64,000 bases of DNA from a virus (lineage: Duplodnaviria; Caudoviricetes), in IMG/VR virus record IMGVR_UViG_3300021399_000159, positions 2,753 through 66,752 of that record. The stretch is one strand, 5' to 3'. Below the pieces are notes generated by a model, which was given only the letters and a program-made list of their open reading frames with translations, was not told where the DNA came from and made no database searches. The translations under genes and the position numbers were made by a program. Positions 508 to 35,800 of the stretch are shown here, piece after piece (position 1 is the first letter of the stretch; each line of letters opens with the position of its first letter).

Positions 508-597
508 ATCTGCCGGCCGCGCGGGATGTTCAATCTGGTCAGAAATTTTCCCAAATAAGTGATTGTTCTGATCCTATAGGTATGATAAAATATCAGT

Positions 598-850
598 GTC
601 AGGTGAGGGAAGGCAAAGCCCGAAACGGGTGTGACCCATGAGAGTCAGTAAGACCATTCCCGATGAACCAACCGCACGCCGAAAGAGCGAGATGGTGCGG
701 TATACAGTGTGGCGAGCACTGGGATCCGAAAGGGTTCAAATGTCGAGGCAGCACCTGCAGGGGACTGAAACAGGCAGGGATTCATCTCGTGAAGACCTCC
801 CCTTCCACCTCTGAAACGCACTTCTGAAGAAAGCGTCCCTCAAGTGGTAA
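598..850 (+). ncRNA. Putative structured non-coding RNA (~250 nt)
   Basis: Own promoter (TTGTTC 563-17-TAAAAT 586) and terminator (851-880); closing stem 601-613/801-810; several stems, some capped by GAAA tetraloops; no RBS-supported ORF. Confidence 0.65.
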
Positions 851-880
851 AAATGCCGCCATGTAGGCGGCATTTCATTT
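851..880 (+). terminator. Intrinsic terminator
   Basis: AAATGCCGCC-ATGTA-GGCGGCATTT followed by T-rich tail. Confidence 0.75.
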
Positions 881-9304: not shown

Positions 9305-9531
9305 GCTAACTCCGCCGGCCGCGAATTGTATACAGTATTCTTCAAAATAAATGCTTGACTTCTGATAAAATTTCTGATATACTATATATGTCAGGTGAGG
9401 GGAAGAGGTTCTCCGAGGGCGAAAAAAACTTTGAAAAAAAGTTTGAAAAACCCTTGACAGCCATCCTAAAATCTGATATAATAAATACGAAAATAGGAAG
9501 GACACCTCACAAACCAGAAAGGGTTACCACT

Positions 9532-16462: not shown

Positions 16463-16675
16463 ATGACATTCTTGACTAACGAGCAACAGAAACATTATGA
16501 AGTGACACGTAAGCAACTCATTGAAGTAATCGCGCAATTTCATTTTCAAACGCAACAGACTGAGTTACGAAAGATAATAGAGCAAGCGCTAGCAAAACCA
16601 TCCCCTCCATATCAACTCACTCCGAGAGGATGCGGGCTATTGGAGGATAGATTATGCGAGAACACGAACAAGTAA
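16463..16675 (+). CDS. Hypothetical protein
   Basis: GGAGG RBS; promoter 16388-16415. Confidence 0.7.
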   Translation: MTFLTNEQQKHYEVTRKQLIEVIAQFHFQTQQTELRKIIEQALAKPSPPYQLTPRGCGLLEDRLCENTNK

Positions 16676-18306
16676 AAGAGTTTGCCGTTGAAGATATTAT
16701 TCGCTTGGTAAGAGAAACCGATTTATCGGATTTAAATACATTCCTAGTGCTAAATGGCGGCACTGGCGTTGGTAAAACTACCGCTATTATGAATAATGTT
16801 TTGGAAGAATTGGACCATAAGTTTGGACATCTTCAAACAATGTTAGTAGTGGAAAGCCGCAGTATTACAGTTGACCAGCTGCGCCATAAGTATGGCGAAG
16901 CAGACGTATGCCAGCGCCTAGGCTTTGCAAATATGATACGCAAAGGCACAATCGACTACGATTGGGTAGTTATTGATGAATGTCATGGCCTCTTTAGCGA
17001 AGCCTCTTTCGCTGAAGACACAACAATCATTGGAGATTGGATTAAGAACTCGCGCGGCAATACTCATATCATTTTCATTACTGCCAATGATGAATATTTT
17101 GAAGAGCTATCGACGCAATTCTTTTCCGAAGAGTGTAATTTCATTTATTTGTTTCCTGATTTCACTAAATATGTAAGCAATACATATGTAAAGGAAATAC
17201 AATTTATAAAAACCCGAAACACCAATATGACACTCGATTACTTTTTGGCGCAACAAGAAGGCAAGCGCGGAATTGTATTCCTTAAAAGCGCGAGTAAAGT
17301 TAAAGATTGGTACTTCAAGCTACTTGACCAGAAAAAAGGTGTTGCAATGCTCGTTTCTCGCGCAAATCAAACCTCACTTTCCCTTGATATAACACAAGCG
17401 AAAACAGCCGCACAAAACCTTATGCTTGAATTAAGCGATGGCCATAGCGGCCTTACCCTTGCTGACCTCCAAGATATGGCTGATAAACAACGTGTTGCAG
17501 ATGGCAAGGAATCGTTGTTTGAGGCGCTACGTAACGAGCATTTACCAGACGATATTTCAATTTTAATTGTAACTGACACACTTCAAGAAGGTATGTCTCT
17601 TACCTTTCCCAAAATTGATTATATGATTATTGATGGATATGGGGAAGTGGAGATTAGACAGAAAGTTGGGCGCTTTCGCGGCAACCTCGACCAGCTTTTC
17701 ATTATATTCAATCCCTCAAATGCTCGCCGCGACTTCCAAATCCAATCAGATATGTTCGCGCATTTCCGCCAGCTACAAGCCGAAGGCAATCAAGTTGAAT
17801 TGGCAAAACAATATGGCATTTTAAAGGGTGCTCAATTTAAGATTCGATATATAAACGAGCGCAAGCACGATGATGGCTCCAAATCCTACGAAGTAAACGA
17901 GCAAGCCTATCTCCATCTCATCAAAGACCATAAGGATTATTTGCACTTAATGGGTAATACGGAAGAGGCCGTGCGCGAAATGTATTCATACTTGGGCGCA
18001 GTTCCTAAACTCATAGACCCCAACTTAATTCGAATTTCAAATCAAAAGGAATTGATTGTGGAGATTGCAGAACGCTGGCGTGGTATTCCCTTAAAGGGCC
18101 CCGCCCAAGAAGCACTCCTACAAGATTTTGCCGCAATGGGCATCAAGGATAAATCGCGCCACTCTATTAATTCATTGCGCGGATGCACTACGCTATTCAC
18201 AGACGCAGGAATTACCGTTGCTGAAAAACAAGCAACATTAAAAGACTTAGAGCAATGGCCGCAATACCTTACTAAAGTGCGTGAAAAATTCCGAGTTATT
18301 ACTTGA
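16654..18306 (+). CDS. Superfamily 2 helicase-like protein
   Basis: Walker A GGTGVGKT, Walker B VIDECH, motif III ITA, QEGMS and QKVGRFR motifs V/VI. Confidence 0.85.
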   Translation: MREHEQVKEFAVEDIIRLVRETDLSDLNTFLVLNGGTGVGKTTAIMNNVLEELDHKFGHLQTMLVVESRSITVDQLRHKYGEADVCQRLGFANMIRKGTIDYDWVVIDECHGLFSEASFAEDTTIIGDWIKNSRGNTHIIFITANDEYFEELSTQFFSEECNFIYLFPDFTKYVSNTYVKEIQFIKTRNTNMTLDYFLAQQEGKRGIVFLKSASKVKDWYFKLLDQKKGVAMLVSRANQTSLSLDITQAKTAAQNLMLELSDGHSGLTLADLQDMADKQRVADGKESLFEALRNEHLPDDISILIVTDTLQEGMSLTFPKIDYMIIDGYGEVEIRQKVGRFRGNLDQLFIIFNPSNARRDFQIQSDMFAHFRQLQAEGNQVELAKQYGILKGAQFKIRYINERKHDDGSKSYEVNEQAYLHLIKDHKDYLHLMGNTEEAVREMYSYLGAVPKLIDPNLIRISNQKELIVEIAERWRGIPLKGPAQEALLQDFAAMGIKDKSRHSINSLRGCTTLFTDAGITVAEKQATLKDLEQWPQYLTKVREKFRVIT

Positions 18307-26831: not shown

Positions 26832-29800
26832 ATGGCTGAATATAACCAACATGTTTGGGAAGCAGGAGAAGCGATAACTCCAGAAAAAGTTAATAATATG
26901 GAGCGAGGAATTGCTGGAGCATATCGTCTAGCGAATGATGCTACCACTGCTGCAGAAGGATTAAATTCACGAATTAATACATTATCTAATGATATACAAA
27001 ATACTAATGATAAAATTGGCGGAGAATATGATGCTTCTAATACTGTTGCAAACAATATCAGGCAAATAGTAGATAGTATAAGCCAAATTACTGTATCATA
27101 GGAACATGGTGAATTAGCATGGGCAGAGTTAGTTGACGCGGGCGTGGCATATGATACTAGCACGCAAAGAGTTACTCGAAAGCTAAAAGAAATATTTTAG
27201 GATTACGCTAAAGTTGTAGATTTAAACTCTGCAGTGGATGATATACTACAAAGATTCTAGCAAGCATATACTACTCCATCACCGAATGATACGGTATTAG
27301 TTAATGGCGCAACACAACGAGTTTCTTCTTTAGCGCAACGTATTTAGCATATCTATAATACAATTACTGCCGTAGATAATAAATTTGGTAGCGATTTTAC
27401 AAGTGATGCTACAGTTTCTGCTAGAGTGCAAGAACTCAATGACTAGTTATAGCTTTTAAGTGACAGTTTAGGCAGCATTTCCGGTGTTAATTTAAGTGAG
27501 CGCATTAGTGCTTTAGACGGCGGTAATATTACTTCTAGAGATGACTTACCAACTAGAAACATTAAGTCATTAATTACAGAAATTAATGCAGCGCATGAGT
27601 CTACTGCTTTTACTAGCGGTGGCGCTGCGGCTACATATGATAACTTAGATGCACGTTTTGAAGACGATGAAACTCGTATCTTAGGTATTAATTCAGAAAT
27701 TAACGCCGCTCATAAAAACTATGCTTCAACTTTAGAAGAACGCTTTAAGGCGATTGACGGAGATAGCAAGCCTTCTCGTACATTACCAAATGTTATTGCG
27801 GAATTAGAAACTGCACGTAATGGGGCAGATAATCTAAATACTCGTTTGAATGCCTTAGATAATACACAGGCAAATGATAGTTTAATTAGCCGCGTTTCTA
27901 CATTAGAAACTGGAAAAATTGATAAAACGAATATTGAAAATGGACTAACTGTTCAGCCTGAAGTTTCAGGTAAAGTATTAGATGCCCGTCAAGGTAAAGT
28001 TTTAAAAGAGTTAATTGATGGTGTAAATACTGACTTAGGCGGCCGTATAACCGCAACAGAAAATGCATTAACTACTTTAAATGGTGGAGCTTCTACTGAA
28101 GGTTCTGTATTAAATACAGTTAATACTCGAATTGCAGAAGTGGTAGCTGATGCGCCAGCGGCTTTTGACACATTAAAAGAAATTGCGGATTGGATTGGTG
28201 ACCATAACAGTGATGCATTAGAAATGCAGCAGAATATTATTACCTTGCAAAACACTGTAAATGACCCTAATTCTGGACTTGCTGCGACAAAAGCTATCGC
28301 TGATGCAGCCGCGGTAAAAACAGAAGTTGATGCTTCTTTAAATGGTTTAGATGCTCGTTTAGACGCAATTGATGGCGGTGAAACATTAACTGGTGCATCT
28401 ACATTAGCAGAGCGAGTGGGCGCAGCGGAAACGGCTATTACAAATCTATAGAAAGAACCCAAGTCTGCGACAAAAATCGTTGCAGTTTTACCCGCTACCG
28501 GTGATTCTAGTAAAGATTATTTAGTCGGACCAAATGAAGAAGGCCAGTATTTTTATTACAAATGGATTAATAACGATTGGCATTTAATTAGCGGCGGAAA
28601 TAATGGAGAGGCCGGAAACAGCAACTCCGAAGTATATGCTGATTATACCGCATTTTAGAGTGCAGATCCAGAGGAAAATAAAGACTATTATGTTTTTAAT
28701 ACACAAGATAATATTTATCATCATTATAGATATATTCCTACAGGGAATCCACAAGAGCCATTTGAACTAATTAAAATTGGGCAAACCATTAGTACCGATA
28801 ACATTAAACGGTATAATCTAACATCTTCTGTAGAAGGAGAAAATGATAATCAAAAAAATTATCTTGATTTATATGAGTTTGATTATGGTACTGATAATAC
28901 TGAATTCTCTGAAGGCAGACGTGTTGCTCATATTAAATTAGTAGGCGGCAGCGGTGGTGGTACTATTTCTAGCCGTAAATTTACTAGAATTACAGCAAAA
29001 TCTATCAATATTGCAAAAGGTTCTAGCGATCCTCTACCACTAAGATTCTTCTATACAACAGGAATTGCAAATGAAAGTGATAATTATACTTTAACTCAAT
29101 CTAGCCGTTCTATTGCAGAGCATGTCATAGATGAAGGAACACTTAATAGCGGCAATCCCGCTGATGCATCTACCACTTGGCCTGATACAGTAACTACAGG
29201 ATTCTATGGGTTAGATATTTCTTAGTATTGCAAAAATGCAGATGCGGAAGTATAGACATTTATATTAAAAGCATACGACCCAGATAATCCAGATATCTAT
29301 ACAACAATCAGTTGGAATGTTAATATTATTAATTTAAGTATTGGTTCTAACTTTACTTAGAGTTCTGTTTCAGCATTAAATCAAACAGTACGTTTTTCTT
29401 ATATTCCTACAGGAAATGTTGAAAAGACTGCTGTATTTGAATTAGATAATACAGTAATAGGCTCTGTATCTTTAAGCGCGAGAACTATTAGTGAACAGAC
29501 TTATGATATTAGTATGCCAACAACCGGAGAGGGAGTCTATCAATTAAAAGCTTATTTAACCGCAACTCTTAGCGGGACTACTATTACTAGTGACCCCGTA
29601 TATCGCGATTTAATTTGGCGTGATAGCTCTAGTACTAATATTATTCTAGGTTCGCCGTACAGAGGCAGAAATATTCCAGTGACCCAATATGACACAATAT
29701 CAATTCCATATAGTGTTTCTGGTAATTTAAGCTCCTATCACGTATAGCTCTTTGTAGATAATATGGATACTCCTATTAATGAAACTACTTTAATGAACAG

Positions 29801-32800
29801 TAATGGTGGAACTTGGAGTTATAAGCCATTAGTCGTTGGAAATCATCCAGTAAAGATTCAGGTAGAGGATGTATCTCTAACCTTTACTCTAGTAGTATCA
29901 GAAATTAATGTTGACATTAAGCCTGTAGAAACTGATTTAGTTTTAGATTTTAATCCACAAGGATTGAATAATAATTCTAATGCAGCTCGCAATTGGACTA
30001 ATGGCACCTATCATTTAACTACTTCTGATAATTTCGACTGGTATAATGGTGGTTATGGTCAAGATGCAGATGGTGAATACTTCCTAGTTAAGTCTGGTAC
30101 TCGCGCGTATATTGACTATAAAATGTTTAAAGCGGGAACAGAATCTACAACTGACGGAAATACTACTATTACAACTACTACTAGTTCAGTCTATAGCACT
30201 GGTCAAGAAATGAAAGTTATTTTCAAAACTAGCGCAGTACGTTCTATTGACGCAGTATGGTTTAGTAATACAGGCCGTTATGATACTAGCGTAGATAAAG
30301 AAGTAGGAATACAGTTAAGTACTCACTCCGGATGGTTAAAGACAGATAATGCAGGCGTAGTTGTGGATGATAATGAAGCAATTACTAATACATACTTGTA
30401 TTTCCCCTATTCTGAAGATGATAGAATTGAATTAGACATAAATATCAACAAAGAAGACCAAGCTACAAAGAGCGGCAGCTTTATTATGTCTTATGAAGAT
30501 GGTGTACCAAGTAAAGCGTACGCTTATACTCATGGACAAAAACTATATCATGCTGAAAATAATGAAGCAATTATTACAATTGGTTCTGATGATTGTGATA
30601 CATATATTTATAGATTGCGCGTTTATAATAATGAGTTAAGTGCCGCCCAAGTATTACGTAACTTTATTGCTGATGGTAAAGATATAGATGAATGTATTGC
30701 TCGGTATGACCGCAACTGTATTTATTATGATTCTACTAATCAAGAATACAGTCCTTATGCTGATGATAATTTTGTATTAGACCCTGAAGCACTGGCCTCT
30801 CGTATTCCAGATGTTAAGGTGCTAATGTTAGATGCTCCAACATTTACATTAAATAAAAAGAGCTTCATTCAAGATTCTTCATTAAGATGCATTCATGCCG
30901 CAGGCGGTAAAGTATATCCAAGCCGCGGCGCGGCAGATAACTGGAAATTTGAACATGGTTATCATGCTGGTCAGGGCACTACCTCTGATAAATACGGTGA
31001 TGCAGGACGTAACTTAGACTTTATCTTTAACTGTGATGGAACACATAAACCTACAGATAAAGTTAAGCCAATTGCTGGATATGTATCATAGGTAACTACT
31101 GGTTATGGTACTCCCGATGCTCAGGTTTCTACAGTTACCGGATGGATGGAAGACGGCGGAAAAGTCTCACTAACAAAGACTTCTGTACCTAATAACTTCT
31201 TTAACTTTAAAGTAAATATTGCGTCTTCTGAAAATGTCAATAATGCGCTATTACAGAAACGATATAACGATTTCTTACCTTATGTTTCTCCAGCAAGCGT
31301 TAATCAAAAGGCAAAACATACTGGCTATAGCGCTGACGTTGAAATTAAAAATGATATGGAATTTGTTCCTGCGGTATTATTTGTAAAAGAAAGTAATCCA
31401 TCTATTGCTTCTCATAGTGAATTTAAAGACAATGATTGGCACTTCTATGCTTTAGGTAATTTAGGAGACTCTAAGAAAACTGACTATACCAGAGCATATG
31501 ATCCAGATGATCCTTATGAATTTACTATTGAAATTTCTGATAATAATACCAATAACTCACAATTCCAGACTGGTGTATATAAACTAAATGGGCAAGAACA
31601 ATTAGAGGAATTTACCGTTGATTAGGATATGAAAGATGGTGAGCCAATTCCAGGATCTTACACTGCACATGGTACTTCTGGCGCAATTGATCCATACAAT
31701 TATGTATATCCAATTACTTCAGAGCAATGGAATGAATGGGATACAGAAAATAATAGATATAAGAATAAAGCTCACTGGTCATTAGTAAATGAGCCTTATG
31801 ATGGCGACCATTCATTTGAAATGCGTTATGCTTATTTAGGCAACTACCGTGACGGCAAAATTGTAAACGGTGATACCAATACTGCTAATAGCATATTAGA
31901 GAAAAATAGTAAGATTTGGCAAGCTTTCTACAGCTGGGTAGTAACTGCTGATAATGAGACATTCGTTCGTGATCTAGATCAGTGGTGCGTTCGCAGCGCA
32001 GTAGAATTCTGGTATGCCTTTACTCACTATTATACAATGATGGATAGCCGCGCGAAAAACACTTTCTGGCATTTTGCTAAGACTGGTATTCATAGGGCAG
32101 TAATTAATCCTATTCCTGAAATGCTACATGTATATGATGAAGAAACCGAAGAAGGCTCTGGAATATTTGAAAGAACTAGTGATACAGTCATTGATCCTCA
32201 AAAGACATATTATACAGAATATGCATTTGATATGTGGGATTATGATAATGATACTGCCTTAGGTATTAATAATAATGGTGAGTTAATTTTCCCATATGGA
32301 AAAGAAGATAGCGACTTTACTGTTGATGGAGATCCTGCCTCTGGACGTGTATTTAACGGCGCGGGTTCTGTTTTCTGGCGTCGTCTGCGTGACTTATGCA
32401 CACGTGAAATTAGTGATATATTTACTACTGTTAATGAACAGTTCTTTAGCGCCAATAGTCTAATTGAACAGTTTGACAAATTCCAAGAATGTTATCCTGA
32501 AGCCTTATGGCAAGTGGACATTCAGCGTAAATATATTCGTCCATTTACAGGTGAATCATTAGACAATTCCATTGAACGCACTAATACAGCTTTCTTAAAG
32601 AGTATGATGCAAGGCCGCAAGAAATATCAACGCCGTCAATGGATTAAAGATCAATATTATTATTTTGGTAGTAAATATAAGCTTAGTAATATTATGAATG
32701 ACCGTTTCCTTATGGACTGCTATACTGGACCTGATGATGCATTAATTGCCGATTTAATCGCGCAAGGAAAAACTGAAGAAGCAAGTCAATATGTAGCATC

Positions 32801-35800
32801 TAATTGGAATATTACTATTACTCCATATTAGAATATGTATTTAAATGCAGACTTTGGTGAAACTAGTAGCACTCCTATTCGTGCAATTGCGGGTAAACCT
32901 TATGAATTTGTTGGTATATTCCCTTCAATGAGTAATAGCCGCATTTATATTTATGGCGCTTCTCGTTTACAGGCATTAGAAGGAAAAGCAAAGAGAGAAG
33001 ACCCTGATGATCCAGAAAAGATTACTGGAGCAGAAGGCTTAGCTTCTTTATACATCGGACGTAATGAATTCTAGAGAACGGATAAATTACGTAAATTAAA
33101 TCTAGGCTCTGATAAACCTACTTATCGTAATACAAACTTCGCTTCTCTGAATCTATCAGTTAATAGCCCAGTCTTAGAAGAATTGAATATAAAGAATTGT
33201 GGCAGTTTAACTGGTGAATAGAATTTGTCCGGATGTAATAATTTACGTATCTTAGAAGCAGAGGGCACAACCTTAACTAATATTATTTTACCATCTTCTT
33301 CTTAGATTACAACATTACATTTACCATCTACAATTACTAGCTTAACTCTACGTTCTGCGCGTTTGCTTAATGATTTATCTGTTAAGAATAAAGCAACGGG
33401 CTTACAAGACTATAGTAATATTCACGAGATGCTAATTGATAATAGCGATTATAGCGCTAATATTAATTGGTTAACTATTTCAAGTGGTATATTAGATAAC
33501 TTAAATTATTTATACTTATTGAACTTAAATAATTCATCAGTAGTTAATATTAATGAATTAGAAGTCTTTAAAGAGAAACGTGATAGCTTATCTAACTCTA
33601 ACTTGTTACAGTTAAGTGGTACAATTCATGTATTAGGAAATTGGAGTCAGGTTGAAAAAGATTCTTATGGCGGCTTACCAACCAGTATTTGGCCAGACTT
33701 AAATATTGACACTACCAGTGGAACTGAATAGATTAAATGTAAAGTTATTTACATGGAAAGTGAATATTAGGGTATACCCGCAAGAGAGATAGAAACTAGA
33801 TATATCTCTTCAAATGGCACAGACGCTGAACGCGTAATTCCAGATATTTATCCTGGTTACGCAACAAACGGCTTCTACTCACGTCCTTCAAGTATCTCAA
33901 CAGTATATCAATTTGGTAGTATTGTGCAAGATAGTTATGAGATGTACTCTGGCTGGTCATTATCTCAAGGAAGCAATGCTACTCCTCTAAGTGATACATA
34001 TAGCGCGTTTAATCCTTATCGTGCTAACGCATTTGTATCTGAAATAACTCTATATACTTATTACAATACTACTCCTCATATTTATGCTGTAAAATGGTAT
34101 TTAGATGATACAGTAGTAAAGACAGTAAACAATCAATCTTATGGAGATGGATATAATCTAGAAGCTCCAACCGCAAAAGAATTAAGAAGCGCCGGTTATG
34201 AAATCGCGAAAGTTGATTTCAATACCAATGGCACTGTTACTTATAGAATTTTTGATGGTTGGCAGAAACTTCCTACTAATATCGCTCCAAGTACTGAAGA
34301 AGCTTAGACAAGTATTTATAGAATTGATGCAAAGTGGCATGAAGCAACCGTACCTCTTACTGGTAGCAATGGATTATTTAGCAATGTAAGTTCACCTAGC
34401 TTAGAGCAATTATTCGTACTTTCTCGTATGGATACAAATTTACGCGCTACAGTGCCTGATAGCCAAAATATTGTACCTACTATGAAGTATGAATATAATA
34501 TGGGTTTTGAAGGTACTAAAGATACAGGCATCAATATACTAAATACTACAAGTGCCCGTCGTTTCCCAGATAGCAATAATGTTTCTGGCGACCAAACCAA
34601 TGGAATACAGCCATTCAGTACTAATGATGGCTTCACATTAGTATTAGATTATCAATTTGATAGCACACAGACTATTCGTGGTACTGCAAATGTATTAGTT
34701 GGATGCTATGGAAAGAATAGTGGTAATGTAACTGGTTTCGCTTTATATAACTATAGAAATACCAATAGCCTTACTAATGAAATCAGAATAGGTTATGGTG
34801 ATATGTTTAATGATAGCAGCAAATCAGTAGTCCTACATAATCCAAATCAACGTAATATCGTTGTATTACGTCATCCAAAAGGCTCAGCTCAATTATGGAT
34901 ATATTCTAGTGCCGGCGCCGGTAATGTTACTAGCGCTTCACTTACAATTCCTACTCCAATTAATACTACAACATAGGTAACAACTGATGCGATAATTTGT
35001 CTCGGTAATTTACGTAGTGATTTAGCTTCAACAAGTGGTTACACTTGGGAAGCAAATAACTTAAGTAACGCACAAGGCACTATTTATTGGGCTAGATACT
35101 GGAATGAGGACTTAGGTGCGGGCGAATGTAAACAGCTTGCCGCATGGCCGCATGAACGCATGACCGCTATCATTGCCGCGATTAACAATGATAAGACCAA
35201 TGATACTGCAACTCGTCCTAGTATTTATTTAACCAATTTAACCGCTTCTAGTCATGCCTTTGTACTCCCAACAAAATTTGGTCAAGCGTTGGGTACAGTT
35301 GAAGGTTATGGCAATTCAGATGCAAAAACCATATGCGATTCAAGGTTATTCCCTGGATTACCAGTCAGACTATAGGCGATATTAGGTCATCCTAATATTG
35401 GTTATATGAATTATGTAACACGGGCTGATGAATTTGGTGCTGTTACTTATCAACTTAGTCAAGGCACAGAGAGTACAGATGCATTTGTATACGCGCCATC
35501 TGTTAGTAGTTTACGTTATAACGCTACTCAATATCAAGGAGAATCAATGTTAGAAAGAACTGGAAATGCACAAAATGAAAGTAGTGATATTACACCATAT
35601 GCTTGGATTGGAGATACGTCTTCAATGTAGGTAAGGATATATGACACTAGCGTTGAAGGAAATTGGAGAACTGGTGATAGTAATGCTAATTATTATAATA
35701 TTAGATTCGCCAATAAACCTTATACATGGTCAGGCTCTAATAATATGAGAATATTCTATATACCTTCCAATACTCTAGCCAATACAAGTATTTATACAGC

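Follow-up and report, generated by a model that had tools for sequence, protein, structure and literature searches.

A short GC-rich stretch of phage DNA, bracketed by a promoter and a terminator and holding no obvious gene for a protein, raises a simple question: what is encoded there, and what might it do for the phage? The stretch lies close to the left end of the window analyzed here, that is, 64,000 nucleotides of DNA from a virus of the Caudoviricetes, corresponding to bases 2753–66752 of a 66.7-kb IMG/VR virus record (IMGVR_UViG_3300021399_000159) with an estimated completeness of 36%. The original prediction, a stand-alone structured RNA of unrecognized family with its own promoter and terminator, is supported by covariation, by unconserved open reading frames (ORFs) and by the absence of a match in Rfam. 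Most large ORFs of the window have no Pfam or PHROG match, which marks the phage as very novel. Among them, a 550-aa DEAD/helicase-like ORF is found at 16654–18306, and two ORFs of 442 and 400 aa within 29763–32831 match different parts of one 2494-position PHROG with no assigned function and are perhaps parts of a single giant protein family.

The transcription unit and its coding potential

A scan of the window places positions 598–880 within a run of short promoter–gene–terminator cassettes. With its extended −10 promoter and its intrinsic terminator, this stretch is a self-contained, non-coding transcription unit, GC-rich as first described (56.5% G+C at 601–800, against 36–46% in the flanks). 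The promoter (563–591, forward strand), which was read from the sequence, combines a weak −35 box (563–568), a spacer of 17 nt and a −10 hexamer (586–591) preceded by a TG at 583–584; as its −35 box matches the consensus at three of six positions only, it is absent from the list returned by the consensus scan. Transcription would thus start near 597–600. In relatives, consensus −35 and −10 boxes stand at the same distance from the RNA. At the other end, the terminator scan recovers the predicted terminator (851–880, forward strand), a hairpin at 851–875 with a 10-bp stem and a 5-nt loop followed by a T-run, and a separate consensus promoter, at 999–1027, serves the next gene. A promoter of its own, an intrinsic terminator of its own and no conserved ORF are what defines a stand-alone small RNA gene, and all three are found here. 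Positions 170–345 of the window form a divergent promoter region, to the left of which genes run leftwards and to the right rightwards; within the rightward early arm the RNA comes second, a short way from this switch point.

The first 15 nt of the unit had been reported to recur at 9390, at the start of another short transcript. A repeat of 16 nt with two mismatches is indeed present at 9390–9405 (14 of 16 identical; two of 100 shuffles match as well), but it does not announce a second copy of the RNA: the covariance model described below gives no match at 9390, and no core of the type found in the first domain follows the repeat (window 9355–9460). The repeat represents either an initial transcribed sequence that both transcripts share or what is left of a cassette.

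Regarding protein coding, two ORFs lie inside the unit on the forward strand (638–814 and 663–827) and two on the other strand, none of them with a ribosome-binding site (RBS), as had been claimed. That one of the two forward ORFs, 54–58 codons long, gives a real product would fit the fact that neither is interrupted in the window or in the nearest relatives. Of the 15 closest relatives, however, between four and six have them broken, frameshifted or deprived of a start: the 54-codon ORF from 663, singled out beforehand as the protein whose conservation could overturn the RNA reading, is not conserved and bears stops or frameshifts in five of the 15, and the ORF from 638 starts with ACG in four of the 15 and carries stops or frameshifts in others. 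In the same relatives, variable columns distribute as 21/19/23 over the three codon positions, with no excess at the third, and sequence changes are compensatory in helices. Moreover, the exact ORF products are absent from a collection of 15 billion proteins in which the products of the flanking small genes are present. By this test of ORF conservation, a protein-coding reading is already refuted, and we leave it practically no chance.

Evidence at the RNA level comes from four RNA libraries, two of which were size-fractionated; they belong to four studies of bovine-gut and gut metatranscriptomes, and their contigs cover 602–860. One contig of 157 nt, obtained by size fractionation, has the same sequence as the window throughout 648–802. 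Two of the contigs also contain promoter DNA of relatives, upstream of the start, so that DNA carry-over or read-through is possible, and we take the contigs as a hint, not a proof, that the RNA is made. As they stem from relatives with differing flanks, the fact that they leave 300–571 and 878–1300 uncovered says nothing on the expression of the flanks.

Relatives and the fold they support

Covariance-model searches agree with the statement that the RNA is not a known Rfam family. Indeed, against Rfam 15, no match reached the gathering scores in the 64-kb window, none was found for 400–1100 at E ≤ 10, and none fell on the RNA in 20 further members at E ≤ 5. Likewise, blastn against 50,697 GenBank phages returned no match and a search for related loci with the nearby exonuclease returned no relatives. 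The 16-mer at the 5′ end, used as a pattern among viral contigs, led to 15 loci in unrelated phages, all chance or coding matches, and was dropped. Full-text literature searches gave no description of the RNA, an unnamed entry in the supplements of a 2023 survey of viral structured RNAs being possible.

Entry to the relatives was provided by the 53-aa gene just downstream (1052–1213), a member of a 34-member cluster whose alignment led to two viral loci. A short block equal to window 627–664 recurs behind promoters in both loci and in the 2.7 kb preceding the window, and its 16-nt heart identified 12 true members among 31 viral contigs. The pattern of a 23-nt invariant core (633–655) was then found in at least 120 metagenome stretches and in more than 40 viral contigs. 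In one genome each of 185,579 prokaryote species, the same pattern matched five contigs only, all from metagenome-assembled genomes (MAGs), four being labeled Clostridia, Bacillota or Candidatus Fimisoma and one Treponema; the public runs that hold most of the DNA of this RNA are gut, sheep-gut and similar metagenomes. A covariance model built on the first 113 nt of the RNA (R1) detected 112 copies spread over 100 loci, among them that of the window, which scores 85.8 bits (E 2e-18), and 32 more copies in 77 other viral loci that had been fetched with a second motif, from the D2 region described below. These searches show that the RNA, as delimited by its motifs and model, belongs to a large uncatalogued family of well over 100 distinct copies, seemingly carried by big phages of ruminant-gut Bacillota/Clostridia.

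Covariation among homologues, proposed at the outset as the check on the prediction, is strong in three separate pair counts. Over the first 113 nt, 103 distinct sequences are paired in 93.2% of cells and 13 of 20 pairs change on both sides (none of 500 shuffles does as well, and sliding leaves 31–50% paired), in an alignment that was fitted to the model and hence leans towards it. The full model of the window subtype, with both of its pseudoknots, was applied to 15 sequences in a plain MAFFT alignment; it gives 98.6% of cells paired and two-sided changes at 18 of its 52 pairs, with again no shuffle out of 500 as good and 32–48% paired when slid. The third count concerns a second subtype (B), whose sequences are quite different; 93.4% of cells are paired, 13 of 26 pairs change on both sides, and subtype B keeps the same predicted topology as the subtype of the window. 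The single sequence of the window has a minimum-free-energy z-score of −1.87 only, a modest value because nested folding cannot see pseudoknots.

The first domain, D1 (602–669; this and all elements below are on the forward strand), consists of a helix, P1, which contains a kink-turn and closes a three-way junction, as supported by covariation. P1 comprises an NC stem (602–604/667–669), two G.A pairs (605–606/665–666), a 3-nt bulge (662–664) and a C stem (607–611/657–661) prolonged by 612–613/654–655, and all its sub-helices contain pairs that change on both sides. The long-range closing helix between 601–613 and 801–810 that had been proposed did not survive this comparison: it is paired in 66% of cells, no better than shuffled or slid controls, and its 5′ strand pairs locally, 602–613 with 654–669. 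The window has all the parts of a canonical kink-turn, namely a C stem (607–609/659–661), the 3-nt bulge, the tandem G.A pairs and the NC stem. Of 110 distinct copies, 74 carry the kink-turn consensus, whereas shuffling the 3′ strand leaves it in about 18 of 110, and the C and NC stems covary; the remaining third or so have another asymmetric loop, A-rich, instead. No L7Ae gene was found in five phage genomes, so that a kink-turn-binding protein, if any, would have to come from the host; with the kink-turn itself replaced in about a third of the copies, such a protein is probably not essential.

Within the junction, hairpin P2 (618–630, pairing 618–621 with 627–630) corresponds to the GCCC/GGGT stem originally noticed; all four of its pairs change on both sides, and it varies in the family from 3 bp up to branched inserts of more than 40 nt. 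It is followed by the invariant 23-nt core (633–655), composed of a short helix, P3 (633–635/644–646), its 8-nt loop and the junction strand 647–653. The columns of the core are invariant in the A2 alignment and its 23 nt persist while every helix drifts, the exceptions being pair 634–645, which passes from A-U to G-C in three divergent copies, and pair 613–654, which is A-U in one. The last four bases of the P3 loop (640–643) form a GNRA-type tetrad, which reads GAGA, with GUGA in a few copies (641 being A or U). Of the TGAC/GTCA stem claimed at this place, the inner three pairs stand as P3 and the outermost pair finds no support. A second register of P3, with a 2-bp hairpin on the GNRA tetrad plus pairs 634–649 and 635–648, was rejected, since 645 covaries with 634 and not with 638. 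A search of the window for antisense targets of the invariant loop gave three weak sites, with 3.2 expected by chance.

Downstream of D1 lies the D2 hairpin (672–700), with a covarying 6-bp stem (672–677/695–700) and a 17-position loop (678–694) whose 3′ part, 688–694, is one strand of a pseudoknot, PK1, the partner being 783–789. The stem shows a change from A-U to G-C in 20 sequences and accounts for the core, CCGCAC/GTGCGG, of the ACCGCAC/GTGCGGT stem first read there, and PK1 exists in about 30 distinct sequence variants across the family. A conserved A/U-rich joiner follows (701–743). In the subtype of the window it is split into 701–704 and 738–743 by two inserted hairpins, P5 (705–709/717–721) and P6 (722–727/732–737, with a GAAA loop), both with changes on both sides and equivalent to the CAGTG/CACTG and GATCC/GGGTT stems already seen; in the other subtypes the joiner is uninterrupted. 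The RNA then closes with a 3′ H-type pseudoknot (754–803) made of stems S1 (754–758/774–778) and S2 (759–764/798–803), its last loop bearing the 783–789 strand of PK1. The CCTGC/GCAGG pairing of the original prediction is a strand pair of one of the pseudoknots and fits the covariation-supported model. In the window subtype, five of the six S2 pairs and three of the seven PK1 pairs change on both sides and S1 is invariant; in subtype B, where the strand order of the knot recurs with other sequences, all six S2 pairs change on both sides.

Beyond the knot, an accessory hairpin (805–848, with helices 805–808/845–848 and 816–819/833–836) is present in some relatives and absent in others, which pass straight to the terminator or to the next promoter; swapped pairs in both of its helices were seen in three loci (L130, L043 and L098), as judged by eye and with no count. 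Because this hairpin is optional, we take the conserved RNA to be 602–803, a core of about 205 bases, and the primary transcript would extend from about 598 to 880, about 280 bases with the tail. The kink-turn, the two pseudoknots and the optional nature of 805–848 go beyond what had been noticed earlier. Altogether, comparison across relatives shows a gene for a folded non-coding RNA, in which covariation predicts D1 plus a knotted part.

Copies and their genomic setting

Phage genomes carry one or two copies of the RNA, located 3–17 kb from a contig end (in records of 95–149 kb), and each copy has its own strong promoter. A terminator ends most copies; some continue up to the following promoter, and a few run straight into a tRNA gene. 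In four of 60 loci the RNA directly abuts tRNA genes (L042:975–1290, L098:2417–2760, L107:2715–3280 and L138:7943–8190; Lys, Glu, and within an array of 11 tRNAs), and tRNA processing would define the 3′ or 5′ ends of these copies. A number of copies have an additional 5′ hairpin or are preceded by other RNA. Many phages have a second, more divergent paralogue in tandem; a second paralogue type (L069:498–760, L019:3023–3200) is characterized by a G-C pair in P3, a GUGA tetrad and an extra base before the junction strand.

The RNA is not always complete: 12 of 107 distinct copies are D1 alone, and five of these form the 5′ leaders of different, unrelated small ORFs, with an exposed RBS located 20–45 nt beyond P1. 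One D1-only copy belongs to the same phage as the window, about 400–500 bases to its left and on the other strand (L002:1452–1548 (−), identical with G000:C1:2265–2392 (−)). It has its own promoter and leads a 64-aa ORF, a homologue of the gene of about 63 aa that comes after the long RNA in 21 other loci. In another locus (L075:4900–5200), a promoter precedes a longer RNA-like stretch whose end is a D1-only element, and the next promoter drives a long RNA with a hairpin inserted in D1 between the tetrad and the junction strand, as if a member of the family had been split or rearranged.

No fixed partner gene was found, the commonest neighbors having neither a fixed position nor an RNA-related domain. 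The first of them, a HAD/5′-nucleotidase-like protein of about 150 aa with a weak match to PF06941, is present in 48 of 120 loci, often just upstream of the RNA (for example L115:126–572 (−)), and the second, a 118-aa protein, in 47 loci. The tRNA-like RNA of the phage (9987–10100) was not found in the loci, of about ±7 kb, around other copies.

Possible roles and comparison with known RNAs

Taken as a whole, the explanation that we favor has, in our estimate, somewhat less than an even chance of being right: a knotted non-coding RNA gene whose product would be a stable, early, trans-acting particle, with the D1 core docking on a conserved host component. The host RNA polymerase would transcribe the RNA as soon as infection begins, using the early promoter of the unit and stopping at its terminator, and the knot would provide rigidity and nuclease resistance. 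The docking partner of the invariant D1 core would be a conserved macromolecule of the host, be it an RNA (tRNA, for example) or a protein that serves translation or RNA decay, and a putative host protein of the L7Ae type may sit on the kink-turn. Action in trans is suggested by the ends of the RNA, set by its own terminator or by tRNA processing, by the separate promoter of the next gene and by a body more elaborate than known leaders. Regarding the docking, a D1 core that stays invariant while helices drift points to contact with a partner that does not co-evolve, such as a conserved host RNA or protein. The location within a promoter-rich cassette region near a genome end counts for an early timing. 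The fact that D1 alone leads five different small ORFs counts against a purely trans reading, and such reuse in cis, in the leaders of some early mRNAs, suggests that recognition or protection is the task of D1 and that the knot is an extra.

The same leaders feed the idea that D1 and the knot act together on their own transcript as a cis-acting 5′ module, either as a 5′-terminal knot that blocks 5′-to-3′ decay of the RNase J type or by antitermination past the cassette terminators. D1 does begin within a few nt of the inferred start in most copies, the mRNAs that D1 alone leads encode unrelated small proteins behind an exposed RBS, and an early region built as a chain of promoter–gene–terminator cassettes is one where read-through would matter. 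The put sites of phage HK022 (putL/putR), which are likewise structured RNAs at the start of phage early transcripts, offer a model for the second variant, notably for the D1-only copies that lead early mRNAs, and the exonuclease-resistant RNAs (xrRNAs) of flaviviruses and plant viruses, compact three-way junctions of 70–90 nt with invariant junction nucleotides, placed to meet a 5′-to-3′ exonuclease, for the first. Still, most long copies run at once into a strong terminator and then a fresh promoter, copies with an extra 5′ hairpin or behind other RNA are not at a 5′ end, and a triple-knotted body of 200 nt far exceeds both a 5′ cap and put, which consists of two plain hairpins acting in cis only; as for the xrRNAs, they are not homologous, D1 shows no counterpart of their ring-forming pseudoknot through the 5′ end, and resistance to RNase J is hypothetical. 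We therefore consider a cis-acting module unlikely, if worth keeping in mind. Some of its arguments would also suit a riboswitch, in which D1 or the whole core would bind a small ligand or tRNA as an aptamer and thereby gate the terminator (851–880) or translation behind the D1-only leaders: the size, the junction with invariant unpaired nucleotides, the 5′-leader position and the terminator behind the long form are all of this kind. Kink-turns occur in several Bacillota riboswitches; indeed, the stem I of T-boxes and the SAM-I and c-di-GMP-II riboswitches likewise have a canonical kink-turn at the base of their closing helix. But the downstream gene has its own promoter, downstream genes are unrelated, several relatives are devoid of any terminator, and the RBS is not sequestered in the D1-only leaders. 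No competition was seen between a 3′ part of the aptamer and an expression platform for a downstream gene, the only candidate for an alternative pairing of core and terminator, 601–613/801–810, not being conserved. A riboswitch is consequently improbable.

Catalysis deserves about as little credit. In a ribozyme, the D1 junction, held by the knot, would be the catalytic core, for self-cleavage or for action on, for example, tRNA or the tRNA-like RNA that the phage itself encodes. Such a role would be in keeping with the many pseudoknots, with about 35 invariant nucleotides concentrated in junctions, with a phage setting shared with other ribozyme-rich regions and with the tRNA genes lying directly beside the RNA in the four loci described above; against it, there is no match to any ribozyme family of Rfam 15, no core of the hammerhead, twister, pistol or hatchet type can be read in the junction, and the RNA-library contigs have no common internal end, although contigs show ends poorly. 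More improbable still is a structural or assembly RNA, with PK1 intermolecular, in a ring like that formed on the packaging motor by the phi29 packaging RNA (pRNA, RF00044) or an RNA-only cage like those of ROOL (RF03087) and GOLLD (RF01998). The pRNA loop–loop pairing was shown to be intermolecular, and before that the pRNA looked alike: it shares with the present RNA an early promoter near a genome end, a three-way junction, a covarying loop–loop pairing and a fold kept at little sequence identity, and two paralogous copies stand in tandem in many of the phages. Nevertheless, the models of pRNA, ROOL and GOLLD give no match, the host phages (100–180 kb) are five to nine times larger than phi29 and not phi29-like, and nothing links the RNA to packaging; the phi29 gp16 ATPase (PF05894) was not matched in five genomes, in a search that was silent on control genomes too, and a weak terminase-nuclease match was obtained in one phage genome.

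A more daring version of the docking idea, which we judge rather unlikely, is that the D1 junction is a new RNA-docking or catalytic module that would grip or process a host RNA within minutes of infection. Here tRNA would be the prime suspect, on account of T-loop-like pentads in the core, of the occasional fusion to tRNA genes and of an anticodon-less alanine tRNA mimic in the same early region. The known docks for the tRNA elbow (T-box apex, RNase P J11/12–J12/13, L1 stalk) use a double T-loop module with six invariant core residues in the pattern AGNNA ... UGNNA (PMC3664808). In the RNA, the adjacent pentads 639–643 and 647–651 share with this pattern the invariant G at the second and A at the fifth position, four of the six core residues, and differ at their first residues, C or U in one and any base in the other, instead of A and U. 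The platform pair predicted by such a dock is not found either: 641 (A/U) shows no covariation with 645 (U/C), which pairs with 634, and 649 would face 637 as U with C. A double T-loop dock was thus only half recovered and is, at most, a lead. Moreover, neither T-box nor RNase P models match, and the kink-turn lies much too close to the core for a ruler of the T-box kind.

Returning to the trans-acting particle, its closest counterparts in character are ROOL, GOLLD, raiA and OLE, the orphan ornate RNAs of 200–800 nt of Bacillota and their (pro)phages, and in setting the phi29 pRNA; the present RNA is a member of none of these. Like it, the ornate RNAs are heavily pseudoknotted and conserved, have their own promoters, are often phage-borne and are sometimes located beside tRNA genes. 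In contrast to them, the RNA described here has a smaller core of about 205 nt, with a kink-turn helix, a three-way junction and an H-type knot, matches none of them by sequence or model, and is restricted to phage DNA, if one considers the five MAG contigs among 185,579 species genomes.

New classes of large natural RNAs with an intricate fold seldom come to light, and past ones turned out to be ribozymes, riboswitches or scaffolds of ribonucleoproteins. The family would add a new entry to the catalogue of RNAs as well as a hard, triple-knotted test case for the prediction of RNA structure. It is abundant, with well over 100 distinct copies, is expressed from early promoters and appears confined to phages of ruminant-gut Clostridia. 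The RNA is also modular, as D1 occurs alone as an mRNA leader, and, at about 205 nt, is small enough for probing, crystallography and cryo-EM. Above all, 23 invariant nucleotides amid drifting helices point to a conserved host target, whose identity could reveal a new route by which phages take over their host or defend themselves. Should the D1 junction prove to grip or process a host RNA, the family would represent a new functional class of viral RNA, be it an RNA-only counter-measure against tRNA- or translation-directed defense or a new ribozyme.
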